Shown: positions 7,860-59,521, counted from the stretch's first letter. The stretch is DNA of 64,000 nucleotides from an uncultured Treponemataceae bacterium (GCA_964370315.1 CAYJIS010000002.1:35753-99752), one strand, 5' to 3'. Made by a program: numbers and translations. The notes: generated from the sequence alone by a model not told the origin.

Positions 7860-7860
7860 G

Positions 7861-9967: not shown

Positions 9968-10032
9968 TCTTTTTCTCCCACTTCGTTTGCTTTTATTAGT
10001 ATATCAAAAAGGGGGTGGCTCGACAATAGATT

Positions 10033-11286
10033 TTACTGAGAATATTTTTGTTTACGCTCTTTATTTCTCATCTTTTTAAAGGTATACATTTTATCATCAG
10101 TTAGTTCAATTAACTCCTCTGCTGTAAAAATGTTTGAACTATCAACTTCTGTTACTCCATAACTAATAGATGTTTCATACTCTTTCTTATTTTTCTCTTT
10201 GAGTTTTAATACAGATGCATAACAACGCTGAACCTTATCGTTTATTGAAGACGAATCATTTCCTACTAGCAAGAATTCGTCCCCTCCAATACGGGCAACA
10301 GTATCTGCAGAAAACACACTTTGTATTTCTTTTGATACTTCTTGAATATACCAATCACCCTCTTCATGGCCATAGGTATCATTTACTATTTTCAATCCGT
10401 CTAAATCAAGATAAACAATGTAGCATTTTTCACGCTCAGATAAAAACTTTTGCAACTTTTTCACCGCAACACTTCTAACATAAAATCCAGTAAAAAAATC
10501 AGTTTTTACCTCTGCTTCTAAACGTGCTACGGTTGAGTTTTCCATTTTTATTTTTTCAGAAGTAACTTCATACGTAACAGAAGCTTGTTTTAGTTTTGAA
10601 TAAATAAATACAATCACCATAATAAGAATAAAACTTATAAGGGCTAGTAAGCTTATCATTATTTGAAAACTGCTATTTAAAAGAGGATCCTCTGTTTCAA
10701 TATAAAGTGTTGGTAAAGCAAGTATTTGACTTATACAGGATATTCCTAATAATACCGCTGCTAATTTTAAGCTTGGAATATCACTAAATAAAAATTTAAT
10801 TACCTTTGAAATAAGTATCCTACTGCTAACAAGTATGTAAGGCGCTAAAATAAGAAATGTAATTGCTGTTATCTTAATTCTGTTATCAATATCACCAATC
10901 ATTTCAACGATTTGTTGACCCGAATTATAAGCAAAGATTCCTATTAGTAAAACTCTAATACCAAAATAATTTATGGTAAAACATAATACTGCAGATACTG
11001 TTTGTACCAGTGACTGTTTATACGTTAACGCAATCTGCATTCCAATAACAATAAAATATATAAACATCATTAGCCATTCTAACTTAAAGTCAGTTATATA
11101 AATCGGCACATAAACCAAAAAAGAGTTAATTATAATAAGGAAAAGCAACCTTGTTACGCTTACCATAGGAACACCAAAAATGCAAGCAAAATAATAGAAT
11201 ACAAAAATAATATAAGTGATATAAAATAAGTATGTAGCTATCAACACTCTAAAAACCCCCTTTTTTATAAAAGATTTTTTTATCAT
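10033..11286 (-). CDS. Polytopic membrane GGDEF-domain diguanylate cyclase, type A paralog (no I-site)
   Basis: 417 aa, collinear with 6651-7859. LDLDGLKIVNDTYGHEEGDWY...ARIGGDEFLL. FSAD occupies the I-site position. Its 5' end overlaps the upstream gene by 38 nt. Confidence 0.88.
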   Translation of the reverse strand: MIKKSFIKKGVFRVLIATYLFYITYIIFVFYYFACIFGVPMVSVTRLLFLIIINSFLVYVPIYITDFKLEWLMMFIYFIVIGMQIALTYKQSLVQTVSAVLCFTINYFGIRVLLIGIFAYNSGQQIVEMIGDIDNRIKITAITFLILAPYILVSSRILISKVIKFLFSDIPSLKLAAVLLGISCISQILALPTLYIETEDPLLNSSFQIMISLLALISFILIMVIVFIYSKLKQASVTYEVTSEKIKMENSTVARLEAEVKTDFFTGFYVRSVAVKKLQKFLSEREKCYIVYLDLDGLKIVNDTYGHEEGDWYIQEVSKEIQSVFSADTVARIGGDEFLLVGNDSSSINDKVQRCYASVLKLKEKNKKEYETSISYGVTEVDSSNIFTAEELIELTDDKMYTFKKMRNKERKQKYSQ

Positions 11287-12460
11287 GTTTCATGAGTTCA
11301 TCAACTTTTTCTAAAACATCCGTCCTTGAAAGACCATCTATTGTTTCAAAGCACTTGTATCCCAAATTTGCATGCACCGTAAACTCTTCTTTTTCATCAA
11401 TCTTGCGAATTGAGTTTTTTATTCTTCTAATTATTTCTTCCATCTCATTGTGTGTAACAGAAGTTAATATTATAACAAACTCATCTCCTCCGATTCGAGC
11501 AGGAAAATCCTCATCACGTATTGATTTTTGCAAAACTCTTGCTACATCCAATATATAGCGATCTCCAACCTTATGCCCATACGTATCATTAACATACTTT
11601 AGTGCAACGAGATCTGCATATACTACAGCAAAGCTACAATTCTTAGCCTCACACAATTCATCTATTTTTTGATGCACAAAGCGTTTGTTATAAAGATTTG
11701 TTAGATCGTCGCTATAAAGCTTGTACTCAGTAGCAATTTTCTTTTTAATGATTTTACCATGCAATGTTTTTGCTTCATCTGCTTTTCGTTTATAAGGATG
11801 AAGAACCGTTATATTTGCATTAAAATAAAACAGTACATAAAACATTGCCATTACAAAAAAGATTGTTGCAAGAGCCGAAATTGGAAAAAGAGGTTGATAA
11901 TGAGCTTTCATAAGAAACCATGACTCTGCACAAAGGGCTGCAAATAAAAAGGTTGATTGTGAAGACATTATCTCAGAGTATACTTTTGCAGTTGATATTT
12001 CTACAAATTTTGAAATAGGAATATATTTTTCATAAACTTTTATTAAGACAATAAGAATTGTACAACTCACCACTACGGTTTGAAAAAGTAATGGGACATT
12101 TACATAGATGTCACCTAAGGATTCGCGCAAGATCAAGCTATACAAAAGCAAAACGGTAAGATGAACCGCAACCATACTTAATAGATATGAAGTAATAAAA
12201 AACCAAACTTGTCTGAAGGTTGTTTTAGTGCAAAGGCGAAGTTCAACAAAATAGCCGAAATACCCAATAACGTATAGCACAGCCCAAGGAACCCCGCAAA
12301 AATATAACACAATAAAAGTACACGTGTTAAAGAGCGTAAAAAAAATCAGTAAAAGGGTATTCTTTTTAGAGTATTTGAGAATTTTTAAAGCAAACTGCAA
12401 AATAGAAAAGCAATATGTGGCATAAGATAAAAAGCCTAATGCAATCCAAAAATTCGTCAA
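11249..12460 (-). CDS. Polytopic membrane GGDEF-domain diguanylate cyclase, type B paralog (RxxD I-site present)
   Basis: 403 aa, collinear with 7861-9078. DDLTNLYNKR...ADLVALKYVNDTYGHKVGDRY...RDEDFPARIGGDEFVI. TTG start 6 nt after AAGGAG. Confidence 0.88.
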   Translation of the reverse strand: MTNFWIALGFLSYATYCFSILQFALKILKYSKKNTLLLIFFTLFNTCTFIVLYFCGVPWAVLYVIGYFGYFVELRLCTKTTFRQVWFFITSYLLSMVAVHLTVLLLYSLILRESLGDIYVNVPLLFQTVVVSCTILIVLIKVYEKYIPISKFVEISTAKVYSEIMSSQSTFLFAALCAESWFLMKAHYQPLFPISALATIFFVMAMFYVLFYFNANITVLHPYKRKADEAKTLHGKIIKKKIATEYKLYSDDLTNLYNKRFVHQKIDELCEAKNCSFAVVYADLVALKYVNDTYGHKVGDRYILDVARVLQKSIRDEDFPARIGGDEFVIILTSVTHNEMEEIIRRIKNSIRKIDEKEEFTVHANLGYKCFETIDGLSRTDVLEKVDELMKHDKKIFYKKGGF

Positions 12461-21702: not shown

Positions 21703-23442
21703 TTAGTTATACAAATCGCGCTTTGTATAGGTTGTGTGAAAGAGATGATGCGCTTTTCCTTTATTTGGTTCTCCAAAATAATCCTTATAAGCTTTTAAGA
21801 CAAGTGGATTCTTATGTGAAACGCGAATTTCACTTAATTTATCGTCCTTATAAAGACCACCTGCTCGCATTTTTCGGATTTCATCAGTTGCCCCATATGG
21901 TTGTCCACCACCAGCAACACATCCACCACGGCAAGCCATCACTTCGATAAAGTGATATGAAGGCTCTTTTCCTTCTGCTATCTCTTGTCTAATTTGCTTT
22001 ACAACTTTGTCAACATTACCTAGCTGGTGGATTACAGCAACTTTTACCTTTACATCACCAACTTGTACTTCAGCCCCTTTTACACCATCAAGACCTCGCA
22101 CTGGATGATAATCAAGATCTGCAAGTTCATCTTTTGTAACAAAATTGTATGCAGACCTAATCGCTGCTTCCATAACCCCACCAGTTGCTCCAAAAATGGT
22201 ACCTGCACCTGAGTATGGGCCAAGTGGATTATCTGGCTCTGAATCTTCAAGATCAGTAAAATCGATTCCTGCTTGACGAATAAGACGAGCAAACTCTCTT
22301 GTAGTAATTACTTCATCAACATCTGGAGTCCCAGTTGAATTCATTGTTTCATTTCTATGAGCTTCATATTTTTTTGCCGTACAAGGCATAATAGATAAAC
22401 TGAAAATTTCTTCCGGTTTTAACCCTACTTGCTCTGCCCAGTAGTTCTTAATAGTTGCACCCATTATTTGTTGTGGACTCTTTGCACTTGAAAGGTTAGG
22501 AAGCATATCATGATAATTTTTTTCACAATAGTCTACCCATCCCGGACAACAACTTGTAAACAGAGGTAAAACACCTCCAGTTGTTAATCGCTCTACAAAC
22601 TCTGTTGCTTCTTCCATAATAGTAAGGTCTGCAGAATAATTTGTATCAAAAACATAATTAAACCCTATTCTTCGTAGAGCTGTATAAATTTTCTTTGTAG
22701 AAATTTCACCTGGTGCAAGACCAAATTCTTCTCCGATTGCAACACGAACAGAAGGAGCCATTTGAACTACACAAGTGAATTTTTCATCACCAAGTCTATC
22801 CCAAATTTTTCTATTTGAATGAGTTGAAGCAATTGCTCCTGTTGGACAGTGTACAGCACATTGTCCACAACGAATACATGGACTGTTTGCAAGGTTTACT
22901 CCGGAAACAGGCCCAATCATCGTCTTGTTTCCACGTCCGGTATATTCAAGAGCCCAAACGTTTTGTAATTTTTGACAAGATTCTACACAACGACCACAGT
23001 TAATACATTTATTTCTATCCAATACAATAGCATCATTAGAATCATCTATAGGTTGATCTTTTAAGATTTTTTCAAATCGTACTTCCCTAAGACCAAAGTC
23101 AGCAGCAAGGTCTTGCAATTCACATTTTCCGCTTCTAACACACTTCAGACAATCATCTGGATGATTTGAAAGTATAAGCTCAAGAACTGTTCTTCTTGAT
23201 TGCACAATTTCAGGGTCATGTGTTATTAAATCCATTCCCTCTGTTACCTCCGTACAACACGCTCTCATCATACGGGCAGTACCAGCTGCACGAACAACAC
23301 AAATACCACATGATGCCCATGCTGGAAGATCCGGGTTGTGACATAGTGTTGGTATTTGGACATTTAATTTTTTTGCAGCATCTAAAATTGAAGAACCTTT
23401 AGGCACTTGAACTTCTTTGCCGTTTATTTTTAAGTTTACCAT
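21703..23442 (-). CDS. hydA: [FeFe] hydrogenase catalytic subunit (HydA, M3-type with N-terminal 2Fe-2S and 4Fe-4S domains)
   Basis: 579 aa. H-cluster motifs TSCCPGW, MPCTAKKYE and EVMACRGGCVAGGGQP. N-terminal ferredoxin-like Cys clusters (CINCGRCVESC, CIRCGQCAVHCP). Confidence 0.95.
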   Translation of the reverse strand: MVNLKINGKEVQVPKGSSILDAAKKLNVQIPTLCHNPDLPAWASCGICVVRAAGTARMMRACCTEVTEGMDLITHDPEIVQSRRTVLELILSNHPDDCLKCVRSGKCELQDLAADFGLREVRFEKILKDQPIDDSNDAIVLDRNKCINCGRCVESCQKLQNVWALEYTGRGNKTMIGPVSGVNLANSPCIRCGQCAVHCPTGAIASTHSNRKIWDRLGDEKFTCVVQMAPSVRVAIGEEFGLAPGEISTKKIYTALRRIGFNYVFDTNYSADLTIMEEATEFVERLTTGGVLPLFTSCCPGWVDYCEKNYHDMLPNLSSAKSPQQIMGATIKNYWAEQVGLKPEEIFSLSIMPCTAKKYEAHRNETMNSTGTPDVDEVITTREFARLIRQAGIDFTDLEDSEPDNPLGPYSGAGTIFGATGGVMEAAIRSAYNFVTKDELADLDYHPVRGLDGVKGAEVQVGDVKVKVAVIHQLGNVDKVVKQIRQEIAEGKEPSYHFIEVMACRGGCVAGGGQPYGATDEIRKMRAGGLYKDDKLSEIRVSHKNPLVLKAYKDYFGEPNKGKAHHLFHTTYTKRDLYN

Positions 23443-23456
23443 AACGTCTTCTCCTA

Positions 23457-25238
23457 TTAGCCTTTATCAATTGCATTAAATTTACAGGTTCTTTCGCATT
23501 CACCACATTTAATACATTTTGCTTGGTCAATAACATGGCGCTCTTTTCTTTCGCCAGCAATACAATTAACAGGGCATTTTCTTGCACAGGCTGTACAACC
23601 AATACATTTTTCATTAATAACGAACGATGTAAGATTTTTACATTTTCCTGCATCACATTTTTTATCAGTAATGTGTGAAAGGTATTCATTTCTAAACTTT
23701 TTTAGTGTTGAAATTGTTGGGTTTGGAGCAGACTGACCAAGAGCACAAAGTGAAGACTTTCTCATTGCAAGGGCTATATCTTCAAGTCTTTCAATATCGT
23801 CTAGCTCTCCTTGCCCTTTTGAAATCTTATCAAGAATGCCATATAACTGCCTTGTACCAATACGACACGGTGAACATTTTCCACATGATTCATCAACACA
23901 GAATTCCATATAAAATTTAGCAACGTCAACTACACAGTCGTCCTCGTCCATAACAATCATACCACCTGAGCCCATCATAGACCCAAGTTTTACCAAAGCT
24001 CCAAAATCAATAGGTGTATCCAAATGTTCTTCAGTGATAATACCACCAGAAGGGCCGCCTGTTTGAACTCCCTTAAATTTTTTACCATCCTTGATGCCAC
24101 CACCAATTTCGAAAATAATTTCTCTCAAAGTAGTTCCCATCGGAACTTCAACAAGACCAGAGTTTTCAATTTTTCCAGTAAGGGCAAAAACTTTTGTGCC
24201 TTTTGAATCTTCTGTTCCAATAGAACTAAACCAATCTGCACCTTTCGTAATAATTACAGGTATATTTGCCCATGTTTCAACATTGTTAATAATTGTTGGT
24301 TTTCCCCACAATCCAGATTGAGCCGGAAACGGAGGCTTAGGCGTTGGCATACCACGAAGACCTTCGATTGACCGTAAAAGAGCCGTCTCTTCACCGCAAA
24401 CAAAAGCCCCAGCACCAAGTCTGATTTCAATATCAAAATCAAAACCTGAACCAAGAATATTTTGGCCTAAAAGTCCATTTTCCTGAGCTTGCTCCATGGC
24501 AATCTTTAGTCGATCAATAGCTAAAGGGTATTCTGCTCGTATATATACAAAGCCTTTGTTTGCCCCTATTGCTTTACCACAAATAGTCATAGCTTCAATA
24601 ACTGAATGCGGATCACCTTCAATTGTTGATCGGTCCATATAGGCACCTGGGTCACCCTCATCTGCATTACAAACTACGTATTTTTCATCTCCGGGTGCTT
24701 TAAAACATGCATCCCATTTAAAGCCGGTAGGAAAACCACCGCCACCGCGACCCTTTAATCCTGATTTAAGAACTTCTTGTATTATTTCTTCTTGACTCAT
24801 ATCAAAAAGAGCTTTTTCAAGTGCTAAGTACCCATCACGAGCAATATACTCTGTAATATCCTCTGGGTTGATTAAACCACAGTTTCTTAACACAATTCGT
24901 AATTGCTTTTGATAAAACTCTATCTCGTGAGATTCGCCGCCAGATTTTTTCTCTTTACTATACAAAAGACGTTCTACTTCGCGCCCTTTTACTATTTGCT
25001 CTGCAATAATATCTTTTGCATCTTCGGGTTTTACCTCCACATAAAAAGAATCTTCTGGTAAAACTTTAACTATAGGTCCTTTTTCACAAAAACCAAAACA
25101 ACCAGTTTTTACTATTTGCACCTTGTTTTCTACGCCGAAATTTTTTGCTTCAGCGTGTAAATTATTATAAATTGCGTCTGCACTGGTGGATTCGCATGCG
25201 GTTCCACCACAAACTAAAATATAGTGTGTGTAAGCCAT
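23457..25238 (-). CDS. hydB: NuoF-like NAD(P)H-binding flavoprotein subunit of a bifurcating hydrogenase (HydB)
   Basis: 593 aa. GRGGGGFPTGFKW (FMN site), CGEETALLRSIEG, CGKCSPCR, and a C-terminal 2x[4Fe-4S] domain (CIGCTACARKCP, CIKCGECERTC). Confidence 0.93.
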   Translation of the reverse strand: MAYTHYILVCGGTACESTSADAIYNNLHAEAKNFGVENKVQIVKTGCFGFCEKGPIVKVLPEDSFYVEVKPEDAKDIIAEQIVKGREVERLLYSKEKKSGGESHEIEFYQKQLRIVLRNCGLINPEDITEYIARDGYLALEKALFDMSQEEIIQEVLKSGLKGRGGGGFPTGFKWDACFKAPGDEKYVVCNADEGDPGAYMDRSTIEGDPHSVIEAMTICGKAIGANKGFVYIRAEYPLAIDRLKIAMEQAQENGLLGQNILGSGFDFDIEIRLGAGAFVCGEETALLRSIEGLRGMPTPKPPFPAQSGLWGKPTIINNVETWANIPVIITKGADWFSSIGTEDSKGTKVFALTGKIENSGLVEVPMGTTLREIIFEIGGGIKDGKKFKGVQTGGPSGGIITEEHLDTPIDFGALVKLGSMMGSGGMIVMDEDDCVVDVAKFYMEFCVDESCGKCSPCRIGTRQLYGILDKISKGQGELDDIERLEDIALAMRKSSLCALGQSAPNPTISTLKKFRNEYLSHITDKKCDAGKCKNLTSFVINEKCIGCTACARKCPVNCIAGERKERHVIDQAKCIKCGECERTCKFNAIDKG

Positions 25239-25247
25239 GTGAATCTC

Positions 25248-25643
25248 CTAGTTTTTTACAATATCAATTGACGGTCGGTCAATGATATGTTTATCTAACA
25301 TACTTTTATTGATTATATGTTGTTCAACAATCCGCCCAACAACATCTGCAGTTACATCGCCATAAATTACAGCCGGCATATCAGGAACGATAACTTCAAC
25401 TGTTGGCTCTTTTGCACAAGCACCCATACAACCAGTTTGACGAATATTTGCATTATCGTTTAAACCTTTTTTTTGTAGTTCACTTATAAATGCTTCCAGT
25501 GTTTCTTTTGCCCCTGCTGCAATACCACATGTACCCATACCGACAATAATCTGGACCGTCTTTCCATCTGTATCTCGTCGGTTAATTTCGATTTGTTTTT
25601 CTCCACGAAGTTTTCTTAATTCTTCAAGAGACATTTTTGCCAT
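25248..25643 (-). CDS. Thioredoxin-like [2Fe-2S] ferredoxin
   Basis: 131 aa. Cys pairs in GMGTCGIAAGA and QTGCMGACAKEP. Lies within the hyd operon. Confidence 0.8.
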   Translation of the reverse strand: MAKMSLEELRKLRGEKQIEINRRDTDGKTVQIIVGMGTCGIAAGAKETLEAFISELQKKGLNDNANIRQTGCMGACAKEPTVEVIVPDMPAVIYGDVTADVVGRIVEQHIINKSMLDKHIIDRPSIDIVKN

Positions 25644-25682
25644 AATCTTCTCCTTAGATTAATTATTGTACCGTCTTTCGTC

Positions 25683-26228
25683 TTAATCTTCTTCTTGACT
25701 TTGAATATAATCTCCTAACAAAGCCAATTCTCCAACTGATTCTAATCCGCCAAGTGCGTCCAATAATTCAGTTTTTCTTAAACAATATTCCAGGTTATTT
25801 GTTGCCGTTTCTTTTTTTCTAGTAATTATTAACTCATAATCACCTGGTAGCGTTAAAATCTGTCTAAATAACCCTTGTACATTTCCAATGGGAGGTGTAT
25901 CAATGTTACCTAAATCAAAGAGCATTGAAACTTTTGTCCCTACGCTTTCTTTAGATATAATATCCCACTCACCGTTTGTACTCATTGCTGTTTGCATTAA
26001 AAAAGGAATCCCCAATCCAACTTTTCGGTTTGGGTGCTTAATTCCATCGGTATAAAAAGGATCTTTTACCCGTTTTAATGTTTCAGCACTCATGCCTATT
26101 CCATTATCTTTTATAACAATACTAAGATTTTTCTCTGTTTCAAAAAAGTCGACTTCTATTAGTGAAGAATGTGCTTCTGTAGAGTTTTGTGTTAGGTCGG
26201 CGATTAGATCACAGAGGGTGTAATGCAT
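25683..26228 (-). CDS. Stand-alone GHKL (histidine-kinase-like) ATPase domain protein within the hyd operon
   Basis: 181 aa. N-box-like DLTQNSTEA, G1 DNGIGM, G2 GLGIPF. No HisKA or phospho-acceptor His region. Confidence 0.75.
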   Translation of the reverse strand: MHYTLCDLIADLTQNSTEAHSSLIEVDFFETEKNLSIVIKDNGIGMSAETLKRVKDPFYTDGIKHPNRKVGLGIPFLMQTAMSTNGEWDIISKESVGTKVSMLFDLGNIDTPPIGNVQGLFRQILTLPGDYELIITRKKETATNNLEYCLRKTELLDALGGLESVGELALLGDYIQSQEED

Positions 26229-26229
26229 G

Positions 26230-26712
26230 TTATGCAGTTTTATATTTATCTAGAACTTCTGACATTTGCCCTTTAACAAGCTTCCCATATACATCTCCAT
26301 TTACTGTTAACACAGGAGCAAGCCCGCAGCAGCCAATGCATCGTACTGGTTCAACAGAAAACAATCCATCTGCAGTTGCTGCATCTTCAGGATCAAGTCC
26401 AAGAAGATCTCTCGCTTCATCAATAAGGTCTTGCCCACCTTTTAGATAACAAGCTGTTCCTAAGCAAACACTAATTCTGTTTTTACCGGGTTTTTTTGTT
26501 TTAAAGAAATGATAGAAAGACATAACACCATACACTCTCGCCAAGTGACTTCCTGTTCTGTCTGCAACTGCCTGAGCTGCTTCTTTAGAAATATAACCTT
26601 GTTCTTCCTGAACTCTATGAAGAACCATGATTAGATTGCCTGGCTTTTCGTTCCATTCGTCAATAAAAGCCTCAAGCTCTTTTGAAAAGCCAGCATCCGT
26701 CATCTGTGCCAT
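26230..26712 (-). CDS. hydC: NuoE-like [2Fe-2S] subunit (HydC)
   Basis: 160 aa. CLGTACYLKGG ... CIGCCGLAPV. Confidence 0.9.
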   Translation of the reverse strand: MAQMTDAGFSKELEAFIDEWNEKPGNLIMVLHRVQEEQGYISKEAAQAVADRTGSHLARVYGVMSFYHFFKTKKPGKNRISVCLGTACYLKGGQDLIDEARDLLGLDPEDAATADGLFSVEPVRCIGCCGLAPVLTVNGDVYGKLVKGQMSEVLDKYKTA

Positions 26713-38865: not shown

Positions 38866-40560
38866 ATGTCAGATCAAAACCAAACTGTTAATGCACTAGA
38901 AACCAATCAAAGATTACAAGATTATCAAAAAAAACTTTTTGAGCTTAGAAAAGATGGTGTAAATAGGGTTTTAGAGCTAAAACAAGAGCTGTTTATAGCT
39001 AAAAAAAACAAAATGCTCGATGCCGTTCAAAAACAACGGGTTGTATCAGAGCACAAAGATAATATTGCTCTTGCTAAAGTTATAGCAAAAAAAAATAGGG
39101 CAGAAGAAAAAAGGCTTGAAAAAGAATCCGTTTCACATGCAAATGCAATTGCAAAAAAATATAACGCAGATGTCATTGCAGAGCAAAATGCAAAAATAGC
39201 AAAAACAAAAGTAGAATACAAAAGAGAAATAGCTGATATTAAAAAAGCTGGAGCAGAAGGTATTCAAAAAATCCGTTCTGCGTATATCGGAAAGCCAACA
39301 AAAGTAGATGTAACTGCCCTCAAAGAAGATATTTCTGCATACAAATATGAAATACAATCTGCACTCTTTGATGCAAAAAACCACTTTTCTACTAAAATTT
39401 CCCTTTGTAAAGCCGAAAAAAAGCAAGCCTTTGTTGACCACGTTCAATTAAATAGAACTTTAAGAAATGGAAAGGCAGCTTTTTGTGAAGATGTCGTACT
39501 TAATGCAAAAGATTATGTTTACAATTTTACTGGGTCAAAATTTTTACTCGAAAACGGACTGTACCTCGCTATTATAATTTTCTTTATTGTCTGTATTATC
39601 GTGGCTCCTATTTCAGGCAGAGGAAACCTACTTTCACTTCCTAATATTTTTACAATTTTAGAACAATCATCTACTCGTATGTTTTTTGCACTTGGTGTAG
39701 CTGGCCTTATTTTATTAGCTGGTACGGACTTAAGTGTAGGACGAATGGTTGCACTCGGTGCAGTAGTTACAGGATTAATATTACATCCCGGCATGAATAT
39801 TGTAACTGTTTTTGGTATGGGACCTTGGGATTTTTCAGCAATCCCAATGATTTGGCGTCTTTTAATGGCCTTAAGCCTCTCTGTTTCACTTTGTGTAATG
39901 TTTAGTGCCTTTGCTGGTGTTTTTTCTGCTAAGCTTAAAATTCACCCATTTATTTCAACCTTAGCAACACAACTAATTATTTATGGTCTTTTGTTTTTTG
40001 GAACAAGAGGAACTCCTGTTGGCTCAATTGATGGAGAAATTAAAGATTTACTAGGTGGACGATGGATGATGGGCGTTATTAATGGAGAACTTGTAACATT
40101 TCCAAAACTAATTGTTCCTGCTGCCATTGCCGTAATTGTAGCTTGGTTTATTTGGAACAAAACAATCTTTGGTAAAAACATGTATGCAGTTGGTGGAAAC
40201 GCTGAAGCAGCTAGTGTTAGTGGAATAAGCGTAACAAAGGTTACCATGGGTGTCTTTATTATGGCAAGCGTGTTTTATGGCTTTGGTGCTTTTTTCGAAG
40301 CGTTTAGAGCAAATGCCAGTGCTGGTACGGGCCAAGGGTATGAATTAGATGCCATCGCAGCTTGTGTTGTTGGTGGGATTTCATTCAGTGGTGGTATAGG
40401 CAAAATAGGAGGAGCGGTACTTGGTGTTATCATTTTCACTGGTCTTACATACTGTTTAACATTCCTTGGAATTGATACAAACCTTCAGTTTGTATTTAAA
40501 GGTCTTATCATTATCGCAGCTGTTGCTCTTGACAGTGTTAAATACCTAAAGAAAAAATAA
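38866..40560 (+). CDS. mglC: Sugar ABC transporter permease (MglC/RbsC family) with an N-terminal lysine-rich extension of about 225 aa
   Basis: 564 aa. Residues from about 230 to 564 are a typical 10-TM permease (GTDLSVGRMVAL, GGISFSGGIGKIGGA). Residues 1 to about 225 are helical, K/E/A-rich and have no TM segment. Confidence 0.85.
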   Translation: MSDQNQTVNALETNQRLQDYQKKLFELRKDGVNRVLELKQELFIAKKNKMLDAVQKQRVVSEHKDNIALAKVIAKKNRAEEKRLEKESVSHANAIAKKYNADVIAEQNAKIAKTKVEYKREIADIKKAGAEGIQKIRSAYIGKPTKVDVTALKEDISAYKYEIQSALFDAKNHFSTKISLCKAEKKQAFVDHVQLNRTLRNGKAAFCEDVVLNAKDYVYNFTGSKFLLENGLYLAIIIFFIVCIIVAPISGRGNLLSLPNIFTILEQSSTRMFFALGVAGLILLAGTDLSVGRMVALGAVVTGLILHPGMNIVTVFGMGPWDFSAIPMIWRLLMALSLSVSLCVMFSAFAGVFSAKLKIHPFISTLATQLIIYGLLFFGTRGTPVGSIDGEIKDLLGGRWMMGVINGELVTFPKLIVPAAIAVIVAWFIWNKTIFGKNMYAVGGNAEAASVSGISVTKVTMGVFIMASVFYGFGAFFEAFRANASAGTGQGYELDAIAACVVGGISFSGGIGKIGGAVLGVIIFTGLTYCLTFLGIDTNLQFVFKGLIIIAAVALDSVKYLKKK

Positions 40561-40580
40561 TTAATCTATGTATTCCTATA

Positions 40581-40612
40581 AAAAACCACTTTGAAAAAAG
40601 TGGTTTTTTTTT
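40581..40612 (+). terminator. Rho-independent terminator of the mgl operon
   Basis: 11-bp perfect stem AAAAACCACTT / AAGTGGTTTTT followed by a T-run. Confidence 0.8.
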
Positions 40613-40622
40613 CAAAATTTAC

Positions 40623-40651
40623 TTGACTATTTGAGTCCACATGCATATAAT
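40623..40651 (+). promoter_or_regulatory. Near-consensus sigma70-type promoter for the cheY-cheX-kinase operon
   Basis: TTGACT, a 17-nt spacer, then TATAAT. Confidence 0.55.
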
Positions 40652-40678
40652 CTAGCATACTAATTCAACCCTAGGAAA

Positions 40679-41059
40679 ATGGAAATAAATATGAAAAAAA
40701 TTTTAATTGTAGATGATTCTCAAATTATGAGAAACATGCTAAAAGATTCCTTTTCGGCCTTGAACATCCCATGCCAATACATTGAAGCTGAAAACGGTCG
40801 CGAAGCTTTTTTTGCTCTAGAAGATAGCGATATCGATTTAGTTTTTTTAGACTGGAACATGCCTCAGCTTTCTGGATTAGACTTTGTAAAAAAAACAAGA
40901 TTAATTAAAAAATTTGATAATCTTCCAATAGTTATGGTGACGAGTGAAGCTGCAAACTATAATGTAATTGAAGCCTTAAAATCTGGAGTAACAGCATACC
41001 TCGTAAAGCCCATCTGTTCTGAAAAATTTGCAAAAACTGTTGCGACTCTAAACTTTTAA
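40679..41059 (+). CDS. cheY: CheY-like single-domain response regulator
   Basis: 126 aa. ILIVDDS, phospho-acceptor context LVFLDWNMP, T/S MVTSEA, and K in YLVKP. The start may instead be the ATG at 40691 (MKKILIVDD). Confidence 0.88.
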   Translation: MEINMKKILIVDDSQIMRNMLKDSFSALNIPCQYIEAENGREAFFALEDSDIDLVFLDWNMPQLSGLDFVKKTRLIKKFDNLPIVMVTSEAANYNVIEALKSGVTAYLVKPICSEKFAKTVATLNF

Positions 41060-41091
41060 CAACACTCGAAATAACACAAAAGGATAAAAAA

Positions 41092-41562
41092 GTGGAAAAA
41101 TACATTCAACCTTTTATTACAACTTGTCAAAAAGTTTTTCGTGATTTTGTTGGATTGGAAATCATTGCTTGTACTCCCTACTTTATTGATACCGAAGAAA
41201 AACCTCACTGGGATATCTCTGGCATTATCGGCCTGGCCGGAGAAGCACAGGGTGCAATTGTTCTTTCCTTAAAAAAAGAGCTTGCTTTAAAAATTACTGA
41301 ATCACTAACTAAGCAACCACAAGATGATATAACAAACATTGTTTTTGACGCTGTAGGCGAAATCATTAATATCATAGCTGGTAATGTTAAAAAAGAACTT
41401 GAGTCGATGTTTAAATTATATATATCTCTTCCAACAATCATCGAAGGACAAAGCCATGATATGGCTTGTTTAAAATCACGTGGGGCTTATCAAATTTGCA
41501 TTCCATTTAAAGTACAAGATAGACATTCTTTTTCTCTAACTATCACGCTACAACAATGCTAA
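41092..41562 (+). CDS. cheX: CheX-type (CheC/CheX/FliY family) CheY-P phosphatase
   Basis: 156 aa. GTG start. The N-terminus YIQPFITTCQKVFRDFVG and the D/S-xxxE-xxN-like segment AVGEIINIIAGNV are typical of CheX. Confidence 0.75.
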   Translation: MEKYIQPFITTCQKVFRDFVGLEIIACTPYFIDTEEKPHWDISGIIGLAGEAQGAIVLSLKKELALKITESLTKQPQDDITNIVFDAVGEIINIIAGNVKKELESMFKLYISLPTIIEGQSHDMACLKSRGAYQICIPFKVQDRHSFSLTITLQQC

Positions 41563-41586
41563 GCTTATATTGAGGAGTATATTACG

Positions 41587-43590
41587 ATGGCAGAAAACGA
41601 ATCAATATCAATTAGCAAAAACGAAGCCTTAAGACGCGTAACACTGCGCTTTTTGTCTGTTGGCCAATATGAACCTGGCATTGCAGACGTAAAACGAATG
41701 GACTCCGTAACACAACTAGTCATTTTAAATCTTTTTATCTTAACTGGACTAGCTATTGCTATACCTTATACTATAATGCTTTTTCTTGACCCAGAAATAA
41801 ATATTAGGGTCTCTCTTACAATCCTTGTTTTTTGTATAATACTAGGAGTATCTTATTTTTTAATTCGAATAAAAGTTTCTTTTAAGCCTATAGGAGTATT
41901 TCTAGTTTATACATATACAGTACTTGTATGTTATCTGTTAATTTTACATCCTGCAGGAGGCCCTGGAACTGCGTTATGGAGCATGATTTTACCACCATTG
42001 GCTTATTATATATTGGGACACCTCGGATTAATCCCCTCTTTAATAGTTTCACTTGCAATGATTTATGCCTTTTACACTGACACACGCTTTTATGACTATG
42101 AGTACGCATCAAGATTTACAGCAATTTTTATTTTTTTAATAGCCTTTTCAGGTGTTTCATACAAAAGGATGCAAAATCTTTCAAAGGCTCTGATGAGAAG
42201 TCGATTCTTGTTGAGAAAAGAACTTATTGAAGTTTCTACAATGAAAGAAAACATTGATGCTGGAATTTTTATACTAAACAAAGACTTTGAAATACAACCA
42301 TATTATTCTCACAAGTTTTCAAGCATCCTTAACAAACAAAACCTTGACAATGTTTGCTTTTTATCATTATTTAAATCATCATTAAAAGAAAAGGAAAAAG
42401 ACCTCTTAAAAGCTTATCTTGAAATGGTTATTGCTGCTACTCATGACAAAGAAACACTACAAAACATAAACCCTCTACAAAAATTTTCTTTCTTTACAGA
42501 AAGCGGCCAAGAAAAAATACTTAACTTCACTTTTTCACATATAAAAAGACAAACTGGCGAAGATGTGCTTTTAGGAATTGCACGAGATATTACCTATGAA
42601 AGCAAGCTTGAAGAACGTGTTAATGCAGAGGAAAAATTACGTCAGCAAGAAATGAACACTTTGTTTGAGGTTATGCACATAAAACCTCAAAACCTTCAAG
42701 AATTTCTAGATGAAATCGACTATGAATTTGAAAGAATGAATTCCGTTTTAAAAGAGTCCTCTAGAAGCGGAAAAGCAATAATCAGTGATTTATATCAAGG
42801 TGTACATGCAATGAAATCGAATGCCCTTGTTATAGGATTAGAATCAACCGCTGAAAAGTTGCATGAGTTTGAAAACAAATTGGCAACCTTGATGAATGAA
42901 GAGATTGTTCCTTACGAAAACATCGTAGATATAGTTTTTAATCTTCAAGAGGTTATGTCGATTGCCGACAATCTCAAAACCGTTTTAGCTAAAATGGAAA
43001 CATTTTCAAAAGTATCTCAGCAAGTACAAACCTCAAGGGAAATTTTCCTTCAATCAATTCGAAACGCAATTTCAAAAGGCACGGCTGAAACACAAAAAAA
43101 AGCCATTCTCGAGCCAAAAGAAATACATTGGGAAGAAATAGATATTACACAAAGACGTATACTAAAAGATGCTATTATGCAACTTGTGAGAAACTCGTTG
43201 GCACATGGTATTGAACCCCCCTCTGAAAGATTAACAAAGGGTAAAAATGAAGAAGGTGTAATTACACTAGAAATAATAAAAAATGAAAAAACTTCTAAAA
43301 TTAACATGGTATATGCAGATGACGGTGCAGGAGTTGATTTCAAAAAAATAAAAGAAGTTGCGTTAGAAAAAAAATTAATTACTGATGCAGACGAAGCTGA
43401 TAACCAAGCCGTATTGATAAAAACTTTATTTAGACCAGGTTTTTCAACATCAAAAAATCTATCAATGCAAGCTGGTAGAGGCATAGGATTAAGCTTGGTT
43501 TCTGATCGAATAAATGAACACAAAGGAAAAATTAAAGTAAAAAGCTCCCCCGATAAAGGAACAATGTTTATAATTACCTTGCCGTGCTAA
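41587..43590 (+). CDS. Membrane-anchored CheA-type histidine kinase (multi-TM N-terminus, PAS-like region, Hpt, CheA-class HATPase) with no CheW-like P5 domain
   Basis: 667 aa. About 5-6 TM helices in residues 50-190. Hpt site GVHAMKSNALVIGLE. CheA-type N box LVRNSLAHGIEPPSERLTKGKNEEGVITL, G1 DDGAGVD, F FRPGFSTS, G2 GRGIGLSLV. The protein ends about 30 aa after G2. Confidence 0.8.
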   Translation: MAENESISISKNEALRRVTLRFLSVGQYEPGIADVKRMDSVTQLVILNLFILTGLAIAIPYTIMLFLDPEINIRVSLTILVFCIILGVSYFLIRIKVSFKPIGVFLVYTYTVLVCYLLILHPAGGPGTALWSMILPPLAYYILGHLGLIPSLIVSLAMIYAFYTDTRFYDYEYASRFTAIFIFLIAFSGVSYKRMQNLSKALMRSRFLLRKELIEVSTMKENIDAGIFILNKDFEIQPYYSHKFSSILNKQNLDNVCFLSLFKSSLKEKEKDLLKAYLEMVIAATHDKETLQNINPLQKFSFFTESGQEKILNFTFSHIKRQTGEDVLLGIARDITYESKLEERVNAEEKLRQQEMNTLFEVMHIKPQNLQEFLDEIDYEFERMNSVLKESSRSGKAIISDLYQGVHAMKSNALVIGLESTAEKLHEFENKLATLMNEEIVPYENIVDIVFNLQEVMSIADNLKTVLAKMETFSKVSQQVQTSREIFLQSIRNAISKGTAETQKKAILEPKEIHWEEIDITQRRILKDAIMQLVRNSLAHGIEPPSERLTKGKNEEGVITLEIIKNEKTSKINMVYADDGAGVDFKKIKEVALEKKLITDADEADNQAVLIKTLFRPGFSTSKNLSMQAGRGIGLSLVSDRINEHKGKIKVKSSPDKGTMFIITLPC

Positions 43591-43608
43591 GAAACAATAT
43601 CTAGATAT

Positions 43609-43636
43609 TGACCCATAAAAACATTAATTATATAAT
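43609..43636 (+). promoter_or_regulatory. Putative promoter of tRNA-Thr
   Basis: TTGACC, a 16-nt spacer, then TATAAT. The -10 element ends 10 nt before the tRNA 5' end. Confidence 0.5.
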
Positions 43637-43646
43637 TAAAAAACAA

Positions 43647-43719
43647 GCCAACTTAGCTCACCTGGTAGAGCAGCACATTCGTAACGTGCAGGTAGTGGGT
43701 TCAAGTCCCACAGTTGGCT
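43647..43719 (+). tRNA. tRNA-Thr (anticodon CGT)
   Basis: Hand-folded cloverleaf: acceptor GCCAACT/AGTTGGC, D arm GCTC-ACCTGGTA-GAGC, anticodon arm GCACA-TTCGTAA-CGTGC (one A-C mismatch), T arm GTGGG-TTCAAGT-CCCAC, discriminator T. CCA is not encoded. Confidence 0.9.
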
Positions 43720-43741
43720 AACAAAAAGGCACAATAACCTC

Positions 43742-43787
43742 TGTAGTGAATCCCGTCAATTGTATCCAGCAAACGGGGTTCACTACA
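43742..43787. terminator. Long hairpin between tRNA-Thr and the convergent PilZ gene (probable shared terminator or processing structure)
   Basis: 15-bp stem TGTAGTGAATCCCGT / ACGGGGTTCACTACA with one G-T pair and a 16-nt loop. No adjacent T-run on either strand. Confidence 0.45.
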
Positions 43788-43805
43788 AACCTTCAAGCCT
43801 TTTTG

Positions 43806-44681
43806 TTAATTACCTTCAGAACTTTCCGCAATAAGAAACGCTTCATCTGAGTCGCCCGCTATTGCGGACTTTTGTCTTTTAGAATAATTTTCACTATCAA
43901 GTGGCATATTTTTTATGCGAGCATCTATTCTGCTTTGAAGTAGGTTACGTACATATATGTCAATTGCAGATTTTGCTGAAAATGAAAGATCCTCAGTAAA
44001 TAATAACACCAAAAATAATTTTTCATTTTCAATATATGTTCTGTAAATAGTAACGTTTGCTTTTGTTTTTTGTCCTTTTATATTAATTATAAAATTATTT
44101 AAAAGTTTTTTATTTGTAAACAAGGCTTGAGCAACAGGAAAGGTCTCGCAAAGAATTCCGGCTGAACTAATATTGCTTATTTTCAATGAATGATGAAAAC
44201 CTTTTACTTCATACTCACCAGCAAGGTCTTTTTCTTCTTCGCAGTTTGCTCGTACAAAGTTCCTTCTTCCTTTTGCTTCATTGATATTAAGAATGCTATG
44301 AATATAATCATGAATTATTTCATCACTTTGTGAGAGAGAAACGAAACCGCCTGGTATTGAAGCATTAAGTAAAAAGTGATCCTTTTCTTTTTGCCCTGCG
44401 TAAGTCGACATAATACCAAGGATAACATTTTGAAAATTCTTATCATTAGAAATAGAGGATACAAAATTATACCATTCATCTATTAATAGCTCTGAATCGA
44501 TACAAATAAAAAAAACTGCACTTGGGTATTCGCGTAAAATCGATTTTGCATATTTATAACTAGACAAAACATATAACTCATACCCCGATGTCGCTAACAT
44601 TGGAATTATTGTGTCTTGAAATTTTGTTGGTGCATTTAGGAAAAAAATTTTTCTTCCTAAATCCAAAGCTCCTGATTCCAT
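43806..44681 (-). CDS. PilZ-domain c-di-GMP receptor with an uncharacterised N-terminal domain
   Basis: The track ORF starts at a TTG at 44699. The ATG at 44681 follows GGAGGG. PilZ motifs RRNFVR and NISSAGI (RxxxR ... [D/N]xSxxG) lie in the C-terminal half. Confidence 0.78.
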   Translation of the reverse strand: MESGALDLGRKIFFLNAPTKFQDTIIPMLATSGYELYVLSSYKYAKSILREYPSAVFFICIDSELLIDEWYNFVSSISNDKNFQNVILGIMSTYAGQKEKDHFLLNASIPGGFVSLSQSDEIIHDYIHSILNINEAKGRRNFVRANCEEEKDLAGEYEVKGFHHSLKISNISSAGILCETFPVAQALFTNKKLLNNFIINIKGQKTKANVTIYRTYIENEKLFLVLLFTEDLSFSAKSAIDIYVRNLLQSRIDARIKNMPLDSENYSKRQKSAIAGDSDEAFLIAESSEGN

Positions 44682-44792
44682 ACATCCCTCCAGTCGCAAA
44701 AATCATTTAAAATAAACAATTATCATTACTACTTTTATGTTAACATGCATACCTAAAGATAACAAGAGGTTTTATATCAAAATTGCAAATGT

Positions 44793-58409: not shown

Positions 58410-58682
58410 ATGTATGATGATGACGATGATGATTACGAAGAAGACTTTTACGCAGACATTCCAGATGAAGCTTTTTATTATGAAGAATCTGCAAGACGTT
58501 ATGGCTTAGCACTAGGATTCAAAGAAGCAAGCGAAGGAATTGACTCAGAAAGCACGCTCGACAATTTTAGATACCCAGAAGATGCAGATGACGAAATCAT
58601 TGATATTTTTAAAGAAGCATACTTTGAAGGTGTAGATAATTATAATTCTCAAGACGATGATGATGATGATGAGTGGGATTAG
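58410..58682 (+). CDS. Small, extremely acidic protein with poly-Asp termini
   Basis: 90 aa. MYDDDDDDYEEDFY ... SQDDDDDDEWD. RBS AAAGGAG lies 9 nt upstream of the ATG. Confidence 0.6.
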   Translation: MYDDDDDDYEEDFYADIPDEAFYYEESARRYGLALGFKEASEGIDSESTLDNFRYPEDADDEIIDIFKEAYFEGVDNYNSQDDDDDDEWD

Positions 58683-59521
58683 TCAAAGTTGTAATATACA
58701 CCAGCTTTTGCAAACCCCTTAAACCCATCCTCTTCTGGTTTATAATTTTCTGCTAAATCACCATAATGAGACAATAACATTTTTTCTTTTATCTCAATGG
58801 GAAGCGTTTTTAAGTTTTCATAAAAAGAATGTACTCCACCGGGAAAAAACTGACAGTCATGAAAAATTGTCTCAATGGTGGGGTATTTTTCTATAACAAA
58901 ATCAAGTAATTCCCTGTCAAAGCGTGTATCCCCAGAATATAGCACTTTCTTATCAATAAGTAAGCCACAAGAAAAAAAGGCTGCATCCCAGTCGTCTTTG
59001 CTATGTGGGATGTGCTTTGTTCTAAATGTAATAATATCCATATCCCCCAGTTTTGATTCATAAAACGGTCGAGGTGTTTTTGTAATAAGAGCCGGAGTTA
59101 TTTGATTAAAATAGTCCTCAAAACAAAAGCTTTGCCCATCAGTATTCTCTCCATAAGACAGGCCTCCCTTTAAAGAGTTGTTCCACAAAAAATCTTTATA
59201 AGAATCTGTAATAATCATATTTATTTTTTTTTGTGACTGATACATGCCAATAAGAGATAATTCTTCTAGACCTCCTATATGATCTGCATGAGAGTGTGTA
59301 ATTAATACATTGTCTATATCTGCAATTTTTGAGTTATAGCTATAAAAAGCTAGTGGGCAAAGAGAACCACAATCAACTAGAAGATGATCCTTTCCTTTTA
59401 TCAATAGAAGATTTGTTTGAGAATATTTTTTTGAAAAAGCACTTCCCGTTCCCAAAAAGAATACTTCTAGATTTCCACTGTTTTTCAATCTTATTGAATC
59501 AGAAAACTGTTTTATCTGCAT
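58679..59521 (-). CDS. MBL-fold metallo-hydrolase
   Basis: 280 aa. HSHADHIGG motif. Confidence 0.85.
   Translation of the reverse strand: MQIKQFSDSIRLKNSGNLEVFFLGTGSAFSKKYSQTNLLLIKGKDHLLVDCGSLCPLAFYSYNSKIADIDNVLITHSHADHIGGLEELSLIGMYQSQKKINMIITDSYKDFLWNNSLKGGLSYGENTDGQSFCFEDYFNQITPALITKTPRPFYESKLGDMDIITFRTKHIPHSKDDWDAAFFSCGLLIDKKVLYSGDTRFDRELLDFVIEKYPTIETIFHDCQFFPGGVHSFYENLKTLPIEIKEKMLLSHYGDLAENYKPEEDGFKGFAKAGVYYNFD

Follow-up and report, generated by a model that had tools for sequence, protein, structure and literature searches.

A widely conserved CheY-CheX module with a membrane-anchored HKIII-like kinase in an uncultured Treponemataceae bacterium

Organization of the locus

The window analysed in this study is a 64-kb (64,000-nucleotide) stretch of DNA from an uncultured Treponemataceae bacterium. 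The gene order at the locus is mglC, terminator, predicted promoter, cheY, cheX, kinase and tRNA-Thr, and all features from the terminator to the tRNA gene lie on the + strand. The upstream mglBAC unit is closed by a hairpin terminator with a 13-bp stem and a U-run (40580..40609; −14.1 kcal/mol, z = −5.27), and equal folding was found in 0 of 200 shuffled sequences. Between this terminator and cheY lies a predicted sigma-70-like promoter, TTGACT-17-TATAAT (40623..40651), which agrees with 11 of 12 consensus positions and ends 28 nt before cheY. It should be noted that the region shows no enrichment of promoter-like sites as a class (15 observed vs. 18.4 expected), and the weight of this predicted promoter comes from its place just after the terminator and shortly ahead of cheY. 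The original prediction had placed here a near-consensus promoter driving three genes (a CheY, a CheX and a 667-aa kinase), and we found all three ORFs, with the promoter as a consensus match.

The downstream boundary of the module is a tRNA-Thr(CGT) gene (43646..43720), which has its own promoter-like site (43608-43636) and is followed on its 3′ side by a strong hairpin within 43722-43805 (−34.8 kcal/mol). In addition, the GC content is uniform (0.31-0.41) over 34-48 kb, and the idea of a horizontal-transfer island was rejected.

A P5/CheW HMM, which detected all 13 canonical CheAs used as positive controls, found no match in the six-frame translation of the window. Furthermore, no MCP-like ORF, no other che gene and no flagellar or pilus motility gene, including any pilT-like gene, is present in the 64 kb. 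Thus, the claim that no CheW or MCP gene lies nearby holds for the whole window, as judged by the HMM and an ORF scan.

The CheY and CheX proteins

The first gene encodes a CheY-type single-domain response regulator (40679..41059; 126-aa ORF; Response_reg, 8.7e-23). The true start is likely the ATG at 40691, which would give a protein of 122 aa like those of the relatives. The phospho-acceptor Asp58 is encoded at 40850-40852, and D12, D13, D58, W59, N60, M61, P62, T88, Y107 and K110 each show a conservation of 95% or more among 59 orthologues. The chemotaxis-CheY signature is therefore complete, with equivalents of the D12/D13/D57/T87/K109 quintet, the DWNMP motif and the equivalent of Y106. 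In addition, the closest solved structures are all chemotaxis CheYs (3gwg, 2e-25). The NCBIfam CheY equivalog model gave a score of 74.7 against a cut-off of 189, and so we call the protein CheY-like and do not assign it as a CheY orthologue.

The second gene, cheX (41092..41562), encodes a predicted CheY-P phosphatase of the CheC/CheX family (156 aa; PF13690, 1.3e-21). It matches the CheX structures 3hm4, 6vpw, 3hzh_B and 1xko, and the catalytic motif D86-x3-E90-x2-N93 together with P114 is conserved at 95% or above across 63 orthologues.

Domain architecture of the kinase

The third gene is an intact ORF for a kinase of 667 aa (41587..43590), and all of the kinase motifs quoted in the original prediction are present in its translation. 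Residues 1-222 (41587..42252) comprise a cytoplasmic N-terminus and six transmembrane (TM) helices, the sixth of which extends into the cytoplasm; hydropathy taken together with the AF2 model gave six TM helices, with helices at 35-67, 73-94, 99-120, 126-164 and 171-222. This TM module appears to be a divergent MASE6. The window kinase has no Pfam match to MASE6 (PF20966) at E ≤ 0.1, P0004 and P0005 reach 18 bits, and P0006, with 30.2 bits, exceeds the cut-off of 27.4. Meanwhile, MASE6 is precomputed for most of the ~120 relatives with end-to-end alignments.

The next segment, residues 223-363 (42253..42675), is a PAS-like alpha/beta domain with a linker helix and belongs to the conserved core of the family. 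In the AF2 model its strands lie at 225-230, 300-303, 309-320 and 326-334, with helices between them and a pLDDT of ~90. Pfam gave no PAS match in the window kinase, and in a Foldseek search with the whole model about 480 columns were aligned with PAS-helical-CA kinases (4gcz, 8a6x, 4i5s and 9a5d). Thus, the five to six TM helices and the PAS-like segment that had been predicted are borne out, the latter as a PAS-like fold in the model.

Residues 364-480 (42676..43026) form an Hpt (P1-like) four-helix bundle with helices at 367-389, 395-416, 419-436 and 443-480 in the AF2 model, and the putative phosphorylation site is His407 (codon 42805-42807). The Pfam Hpt score of the window kinase is 21.7 bits (370-438) against a cut-off of 24.6, and relatives score above the threshold. 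Since both the Hpt and the MASE6 scores of the window kinase are below threshold, the two assignments are based on profiles of the family together with the AF2 model. The family profile matches the CheA P1 structures 2ld6 (9e-6) and 1tqg (2e-5), and H407 and K410 are invariant across 106 homologues. By these profile matches the Hpt domain is real, in line with the phospho-site named in the original prediction.

The remaining residues, 481-667, and the stop codon (43027..43590) make up a CheA-type (P4) catalytic ATP-binding domain. Pfam detected HATPase_c at residues 527-666 (4.1e-13), and the top NCBIfam models for the kinase are CheA models, matching the P4 region only (9.6e-37). The family profile matched CheA P4 structures with E = 6e-34, compared with 2e-5 for the best classical kinase. 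In addition, Foldseek aligned the catalytic domain with CheA P4 (1i58, 8p3r) at TM scores of 0.77-0.86 and 27-30% identity, and the N, G1, F and G2 boxes do not vary among the homologues. On these profile and structure matches the catalytic domain is of the CheA class, as had been proposed. It should be noted that the AF2 model of the kinase has a pTM of 0.52, so its inter-domain geometry is uncertain.

Absence of the P2, P3 and P5 domains

The C-terminus of the kinase lies 32 residues past the G2 box (about 30 had been estimated), and no CheW, H-kinase_dim or P2 domain was matched by Pfam in the window kinase. H-kinase_dim was also without a Pfam match in 58 relatives, and neither CheW nor H-kinase_dim was matched in 50 diverse family members. 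We fetched 274 homologues with Hpt and CA domains, 261 of which have the PAS-like module. Among these 261, the P5 HMM had no match, and the tails past the CA domain were at most 42 aa. The earlier reading, no P5 and no obvious P2, thus stands.

For P3, the original prediction had only expressed doubt. In the AF2 model, only 2 residues lie between the last residue of Hpt helix D (480) and the start of the first P4 helix (483), which leaves no room for a dimerisation element. The gap from Hpt to CA has a median of 11 residues across the 261 homologues. By this model and these gaps P3 is absent, and the Hpt joins the catalytic domain directly.

The reading of the protein as an artefact, a CheA shortened by a frameshift, an assembly error or pseudogenisation, would have the absence of P5 as its sole support and is negligible, since the intact ORF is followed by the tRNA gene alone with no P5 encoded downstream, the same endpoint recurs in the 261 homologues, which come from numerous assemblies and phyla, and the catalytic residues are invariant.

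Distribution and gene order of the family

The family was opened up by a homologue search with P0006, which is 36% identical to the window kinase. It contains more than 150 clusters at 50% identity and spans at least six phyla. In the spirochaete loci, CheX is encoded directly upstream of the kinase in 61 of 66 and CheY in 59 of 66. At 79 loci from other phyla (Calditrichota, Leptospirales, Verrucomicrobiota, Campylobacterota, Eremiobacterota and Bacteroidota), a single-domain receiver was found in 56 and CheX in 53. There was no CheW-like ORF within 5 kb of the kinase at any of the ~145 loci (66 spirochaete and 79 from other phyla).

The sensors are swapped on a constant PAS-like-Hpt-CA core, and dCache_1+HAMP, Reg_prop/Y_Y_Y, GAF, PAS, ROK, PilJ, CZB and HisKA_7TM are all used as input domains. 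Two paralogous kinases stand behind a single CheY-CheX pair at locus L085 and at 19 of the 79 other-phyla loci, and in related genomes sensor-kinase paralogues with differing input domains adjoin one CheY/CheX pair. Some family members, among them the Reg_prop types at L084 and L086, have neither CheY nor CheX nearby.

These data also bear on whether the kinase might still work in an array system, with P3 and P5 supplied in trans by a canonical CheA and CheW, or with its PAS-like domain docking on arrays. Split CheAs are known, such as CheA3/CheA4 of Cereibacter sphaeroides (PMC10782961), and only 64 kb of this genome are visible. However, the kinase, an integral membrane protein, carries a sensor of its own, its short Hpt-CA junction holds no dimerisation element, CheW-like ORFs are missing from the surveyed loci, and its sensors are swapped like those of classical sensor kinases. 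We regard participation in an array as very improbable.

Relation to known systems

What usually defines CheA is that it couples, through P3 and P5, to receptor arrays. The window kinase resembles canonical CheA (P1-P2-P3-P4-P5) in its P1-type Hpt, whose phospho-His sits on helix B, in the CheA-specific N, G1, F (FxPGFST) and G2 boxes of its P4, and in its predicted CheY substrate and CheX phosphatase. It differs in that P2, P3 and P5 are missing, while it has a membrane anchor, its own sensor and an Hpt fused to P4. In the survey of Berry et al. (2023, PMC10782961), dimerisation and CheW domains are present in every CheA, and thus the window kinase does not fall within the definition of CheA.

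The best full-length Foldseek matches of the kinase model are class I PAS-DHp-CA kinases (YF1 4gcz, VicK 4i5s and WalK), which share the order of sensor, PAS, helical phospho-acceptor bundle and CA. However, their phospho-acceptor is a dimeric DHp (HisKA) hairpin, whereas that of the window kinase is a monomeric Hpt four-helix bundle, and its CA domain is of the CheA class, as matches of classical kinases to the family profile are confined to the G2 region (E ≥ 2e-5).

By its parts, the module matches the class III histidine kinases (HKIII), which Adebali et al. reportedly described in 2017 as a sensor, an Hpt and a CheA-like kinase with no dimerisation or CheW domain. Their partners are said to be a single-domain response regulator and a CheX phosphatase, working independently of arrays. 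Similarly, the window kinase has a sensory input (six-TM MASE6-like and PAS-like), an Hpt and a CheA-like catalytic domain without dimerisation and CheW domains, and the module includes a cognate single-domain regulator (cheY) and CheX. An unorthodox soluble chemoreceptor (MAC-type) reportedly lies near HKIII in many instances, whereas the window has no MCP-like ORF. HKIII is also said to be linked to pilT and not to chemotaxis genes, with control of type IV pili proposed; here the host is a treponeme, which makes a type IV pilus output doubtful. Finally, the distribution of HKIII is reported to be narrow, compared with the phyla and clusters counted above, and a conserved PAS-like domain before the Hpt is not known to be part of that description. 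The assignment to HKIII is one by parts list, against the reported definition.

The novelty that the original prediction implied is not upheld. The parts list is the published HKIII definition, so the refuting case that it named, an architecture already known as a family, partly applies; to our knowledge, this class has so far been described by computation only. Our analysis confirmed that the module in the window is real and widely conserved, and by its sequence it would join this HKIII design. A search of the accessible literature on P5-less or transmembrane CheA-type kinases found no paper on the family of the window kinase.

The CheA-CheC/CheX fusions of the Leptospira F1 CheAs retain both P3 and P5 (Berry et al. 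2023, PMC10782961). Together with P0022 (7TMR-DISM_7TM + Hpt + CA + CheX), they resemble the window module in the tight coupling of a CheA-type kinase to a CheX-family phosphatase, but CheX is fused there and a separate gene here. P0022 is P5-less and is without the PAS-like module. Meanwhile, CheWS of T. denticola (PMC10653840) was rejected as a relative; it is an array protein with a CheW domain.

Proposed mechanism and output

Taken together, we consider it probable that the locus encodes an HKIII-like two-component module, in which a direct sensor kinase (MASE6-type, PAS-like, P1 and P4) signals to its own CheY and is reset by CheX. First, a membrane or membrane-proximal signal, received through the MASE6 and PAS-like domains, would alter the phosphorylation by P4 of His407 in the adjacent Hpt. 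Second, the phosphoryl group would pass from His407 to Asp58 of the co-transcribed CheY. Third, the Glu90/Asn93 site of CheX would hydrolyse CheY-P, and the signal would decay rapidly. Paralogous sensor-kinases beside one CheY/CheX pair would then each combine receptor and kinase in one polypeptide. Direct sensing, a dedicated CheY and CheX reset, which the original prediction put forward, are supported because the gene order is conserved across phyla and the sensors are swapped; as for the mechanism itself, conserved residues and the chemistry of the family are our basis for inferring autophosphorylation, phosphotransfer and CheX activity.

A chemoreceptor array, CheW, a P3 hairpin and CheB/CheR methylation have no part in the pathway as predicted from gene and domain content. 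Thus, the pathway would be parallel to, and independent of, any canonical chemotaxis array. A direct sensor with only P1 and P4 would be the minimal catalytic unit of a chemotaxis kinase, and a kinase of this type could serve as a far simpler model for the phosphorylation of P1 by P4.

A variant on the input side is that MASE6 binds no ligand and reads a partner membrane protein, with the module serving array-independent sugar taxis. By transport-coupled sensing, the partner in this clade would be MglBAC, the neighbouring sugar ABC transporter; in termite-gut treponemes it would be a stand-alone TM-Cache-TM protein. The MASE6 module is almost without periplasmic loops in the AF2 model, mglBAC lies directly upstream, and galM lies upstream and galE downstream. 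In addition, MglC of the window has an unusual N-terminal extension of ~260 aa, E. coli MglB is a ligand-binding protein of chemotaxis, and at 22 loci a TM-Cache-TM protein of 235-270 aa is encoded right after the kinase. However, the adjacency to mglBAC, which the original prediction had correctly noted, is clade-specific: it is found in the window and its five closest relatives only. The MglA proteins of these relatives are 90-93% identical, so the synteny may reflect shared ancestry. Furthermore, the terminator and the separate promoter divide mglBAC from the module, and neither neighbour is present at most family loci. We consider this variant unlikely.

Returning to the direct-sensing module, the flagellar switch seems to us the likeliest target of its output, since the host is a spirochaete with periplasmic flagella and its CheY carries the full chemotaxis signature. 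Treponemes swim by periplasmic flagella, and we know of no type IV pili in them. It is a tentative proposal that an HKIII-type module in treponemes sends CheY-P straight to the flagellar switch in an array-free and methylation-free taxis or kinesis. If true, a single CheY/CheX pair would collect the signals of paralogous sensor-kinases (MASE6, dCache and others), and through MASE6 the family might also sense transporters or Cache proteins as partners. In that case HKIII would not be bound to pilus motility, and the family would be a minimal system of general use in place of the chemotaxis array.

An output away from the flagellar switch, namely type IV pilus-like machinery, a c-di-GMP/PilZ behaviour or modulation of the canonical pathway as a phosphate sink, is also conceivable, though less likely. 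HKIII is, as noted above, reportedly tied to pilT rather than to chemotaxis genes, and some family members occur in lineages or contexts without motility genes nearby. The window also holds four tandem GGDEF genes and, on the opposite strand and convergent to the module, an ORF (43806-44699) assigned to PilZ by its motifs, which is conserved in the window clade and had no match in Pfam, NCBIfam or PDB sequences. Against this, the signature of CheY is complete (DWNMP, T88, Y107, K110), its nearest structures are motor-binding CheYs, and the host group is one of periplasmic flagella; moreover, the PilZ-motif gene is confined to the closest relatives. The presence of the module in flagellated spirochaetes bears on the single published functional hypothesis for HKIII, type IV pilus control.

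Phylogeny and annotation of the family

In a neighbour-joining tree of P4 domains, the split between the family and canonical CheAs had a bootstrap of 39/100. The P5-less kinases P0020-22 clustered with the canonical CheAs, apart from the window family, and a simple division of the tree into family and canonical CheAs was rejected. The HKIII-type class appears large here, with a conserved PAS-like domain that was previously unremarked. These results also matter for genome annotation: family proteins are at present labelled 'ATP-binding protein', 'hypothetical' or, misleadingly, 'CheA'.

Domain architecture of the kinase

Pfam annotation, the check proposed along with the original prediction, placed HATPase_c at residues 527-666 of the 667-aa kinase, gave a sub-threshold match to Hpt (21.7 bits) and found no match to CheW, H-kinase_dim or P2. 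The top NCBIfam models were those of CheA, restricted to the catalytic P4 region. In addition, a family profile built from six full-length homologues matched CheA P4 crystal structures (E = 6e-34) and the CheA P1 (Hpt) structures 2ld6 and 1tqg (about 1e-5), while classical kinases matched it at 2e-5 or worse and only around the G2 box.

In the AlphaFold2 model (106 homologues, mean pLDDT 86.6, pTM 0.52), transmembrane (TM) helices lie at residues 35-67, 73-94, 99-120, 126-164 (kinked, two spans) and 171-222, the last of which runs on into the cytoplasm. They are followed by an alpha/beta PAS-like domain (225-334), a linker helix (336-363) and a four-helix bundle (367-389, 395-416, 419-436 and 443-480) with His407 on its second helix. 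Helix 1 of the catalytic domain starts at 483, two residues past the bundle, which leaves no room for a P3 dimerisation hairpin. The C-terminus is 32 residues past G2. Foldseek superposed the catalytic domain onto CheA P4 (TM 0.77-0.86, 27-30% identity) and aligned the whole chain over about 480 columns to the PAS-helical-CA sensor kinases YF1, LOV-HK, VicK and WalK. Thus, from the domain order and these alignments, the kinase is wired as a classical sensor kinase and its phospho-acceptor and catalytic domains are those of CheA.

The membrane module is predicted to be a divergent MASE6 sensor domain. Its Pfam match was sub-threshold in the kinase itself and above the cut-off in the homologue P0006, and most relatives carry a precomputed MASE6 domain.

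These results agree with the original prediction of a CheA-class core and an Hpt-type phospho-site behind TM helices and a PAS-like segment, with a stop about 30 residues after the G2 box, no P5 and no obvious P2. The P3 region, which it had called doubtful, is absent.

Conservation of the architecture

The family profile was run with HMMER in full against 1.84 billion representative proteins. The best 150 matches all had E ≤ 1e-78, and most of them aligned to residues ~195-668 of the query as far as their own C-terminus, with total lengths of 312-1475 aa. The PAS-like, Hpt and CA module was found in 261 of 290 fetched proteins, and a PAS-like domain was present in 261 of the 274 that had Hpt and CA. 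No P5 was detected in any of the 261 module-bearing homologues by an HMM that recognises 13/13 canonical CheAs of the same set. Furthermore, their tails past the catalytic domain were at most 42 aa, and the gap from Hpt to CA had a median of 11 aa. His407, Lys410 and the N, G1, F and G2 boxes were invariant in 106 sequences. The N-terminal sensors of 50 long members varied (dCache_1 with HAMP, Reg_prop/Y_Y_Y propellers, GAF, PAS, ROK, PilJ, CZB, HisKA_7TM and others), and these 50 gave zero Pfam matches to CheW and H-kinase_dim. On these comparative grounds, the P5-less PAS-like, Hpt and CA architecture is genuine. We suspect that the PAS-like domain is a built-in regulatory element and not a variable sensor. 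In public databases the family proteins are named 'ATP-binding protein', 'hypothetical protein' or 'CheA'.

The search of representative proteins also gave P0250, a protein of 4858 aa that the kinase profile matched in 24 separate places. It represents a giant protein with many kinase units, or else an error of assembly or gene calling.

Conserved partner genes

The gene 1 product is a single-domain receiver (Pfam Response_reg, 8.7e-23), and the solved structures that match it best are without exception those of chemotaxis CheYs: H. pylori CheY1 (2e-25), followed by the CheYs of V. cholerae and E. coli. Residues D12, D13, D58, W59-N60-M61-P62, T88, Y107 and K110 were each at least 95% conserved in 59 orthologues, which amounts to the full CheY signature. 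The gene 2 product is CheX (PF13690, 1.3e-21). It matches the CheX structures 3hm4, 6vpw, 3hzh_B and 1xko, and its catalytic motif D86-x3-E90-x2-N93 was conserved in 63 orthologues.

Scanning species-representative genomes gave about 65 loci in Treponemataceae and Spirochaetaceae, among them that of the isolate Breznakiella homolactica; the protein matches added the isolates Spirochaeta lutea, Gracilinema caldarium and Treponema sp. J25. Immediately upstream of the kinase, CheX was found in 61 and CheY in 59 of 66 loci, and no other neighbour was as conserved across these loci. A second scan, using only the PAS-like and Hpt region of non-treponeme members as query, yielded 151 relatives. The 79 loci retrieved belong to Calditrichota, Leptospirales, Verrucomicrobiota, Campylobacterota, Eremiobacterota and Bacteroidota. 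These included a single-domain receiver (56/79), CheX (53/79) or two or more paralogous kinases side by side (19/79); a CheW-like ORF was found in none of the 79. Some family members of the Reg_prop type stand alone.

In locus L085 (1151-7424), from a Treponema MAG, cheY and cheX are followed by the gene for a MASE6 kinase, one for a small TM-Cache-TM protein and one for a paralogous kinase with dCache_1. A single CheY-CheX pair here precedes two paralogous P5-less kinases with different sensors (MASE6-like, then dCache_1), as it also does in L047. Meanwhile, 22 termite-gut Treponema loci encode a TM-Cache-like-TM protein of 235-270 aa without an output domain directly downstream of the MASE6 kinase (for example, L016 6557-7267 and L085 4085-4783, with 20 more loci). 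In L016 a full-length MCP has a similar sensor part, and the TM-Cache-like-TM protein may be a co-sensor.

Two other variants were observed. P0022 (L006 6001-9300), of 1099 aa, combines 7TMR-DISM_7TM, Hpt, a CheA-type HATPase and a C-terminal CheX in one chain, with no receiver gene nearby at L006. P0021 (L007 3961-7683, and L008) is an Hpt-CA kinase of 560 aa and is soluble. Its operon also encodes a receiver, a FIST-domain protein and, in the place of CheX, a 162-aa protein with no Pfam match.

Operon structure

The three ORFs (cheY 40679-41059, cheX 41092-41562 and the kinase gene 41587-43590) all lie on the + strand with intergenic gaps of 32 and 24 nt, and a site scan found no terminator-like site in either gap. 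The start of gene 1 is probably the ATG at 40691, giving 122 aa as in relatives. Upstream, mglC ends at 40560 and is followed by a hairpin with a 13-bp stem and a U-run (40580-40609, -14.1 kcal/mol, z -5.3). The predicted TTGACT-17-TATAAT site ahead of the three genes is present at 40623-40651 with 11/12 consensus matches. Promoter-like sites as a class were not enriched in the region (15 found vs 18.4 expected), and we call this one a promoter because of its position and quality. Downstream of the kinase gene, the sole feature is a tRNA-Thr(CGT) (43646-43720) with a promoter-like site of its own. With the hairpin and promoter-like site in front and the tRNA-Thr behind, cheY, cheX and the kinase gene look like a separate three-gene operon. 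The reported position directly after mglBAC is real, but this adjacency is kept only in the five closest relatives and the terminator divides the two units.

A very stable nested hairpin (43722-43805, -34.8 kcal/mol, z -9), presumably a bidirectional terminator, lies between the tRNA-Thr and a convergent 297-aa ORF (43806-44699, - strand). Searches of Pfam, NCBIfam and PDB sequences gave no match for this ORF, which occurs only in the closest relatives. It contains the PilZ-type c-di-GMP-binding motifs KG[KR]RNFVRA and, about 26 residues on, N[IV]S[SC]AG, conserved in 4/4 homologues, and its N-terminal half is receiver-like in look.

Comparison with CheA and class III histidine kinases

In a survey of 13,673 CheAs, all had dimerisation and CheW domains, and the working criterion for a CheA is HATPase_c together with CheW (PMC10782961). 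Unlike canonical CheA, the kinase has HATPase_c without CheW. Therefore, it is partly CheA-like in its working, yet it is no CheA. In a neighbour-joining tree of P4, with a bootstrap of only 39/100, the canonical CheAs and three other P5-less kinases without the PAS-like module (P0020-22) were placed apart from the kinase family.

Adebali et al. in 2017 reportedly described class III histidine kinases (HKIIIs) as carrying sensory domains without a dimerisation domain and using a single-domain response regulator and CheX, often with a soluble chemoreceptor. Their phyletic distribution is said to be narrow, and their genomes are said to lack chemotaxis genes and always to have pilT, with control of type IV pilus motility as the proposed role. 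Every structural and partner feature reported for HKIIIs is found in the kinase system; however, no soluble receptor was found in the 64-kb window. The architecture falls within a class that has been named and described computationally, so the kinase is a further member of it. The breadth of the family, the conserved PAS-like core and the abundance in flagellated treponemes may go beyond the published record, and this abundance is awkward for a pilus-only role.

Putative mechanism

By the established chemistry of two-component and chemotaxis systems, the sensor would modulate autophosphorylation from P4 to His407, the phosphate would pass to Asp58 of CheY, and CheX would remove it from CheY. 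The conserved CheY and CheX partners and the interchangeable sensors lend comparative support to this mechanism, as first proposed, of direct sensing and transfer to a dedicated CheY reset by CheX. In addition, the window contains no CheB or CheR, and no other neighbour is conserved across the loci; therefore, the pathway would work without adaptation by methylation.

As predicted, no CheW or MCP gene was found in the 64-kb window, nor were flagellar, pilus or further che genes. Because this CheY resembles those that bind the motor and comes from a spirochaete, we favour the flagellar switch as its target with modest confidence. A transporter-coupled input to the kinase is speculative; it is consistent with the almost absent periplasmic surface of MASE6 in the AlphaFold2 model and with the genes for Cache-only partners that other treponemes carry.

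Other observations in the window

MglC (38866-40560, + strand) has 564 aa, and its BPD_transp_2 permease domain covers only residues 260-553. The extension of about 260 aa ahead of it is Lys/Glu-rich, probably coiled-coil, and is kept in relatives, whose MglC has 562-564 aa (L001 and L002). A tandem array of four paralogues, about 400 aa each, occupies 6651-12460 on the - strand (6651-7859, 7861-9078, 10033-11286 and 11249-12460), each encoding a C-terminal GGDEF and an N-terminal part of about 250 aa without assignment; a 208-aa ORF without a match breaks the run. A metallo-beta-lactamase-fold protein (58679-59521, - strand) scored 109.9 bits against the Pfam anti-Pycsar Apyc1 model (cut-off 50), in an apparently chromosomal context. 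Finally, an [FeFe]-hydrogenase cluster (21703-26712, - strand) encodes HydA-like (579 aa), NuoF-like (593 aa) and 2Fe-2S thioredoxin-like (160 aa) proteins and holds a stand-alone HATPase_c protein of 181 aa at 25683-26228.
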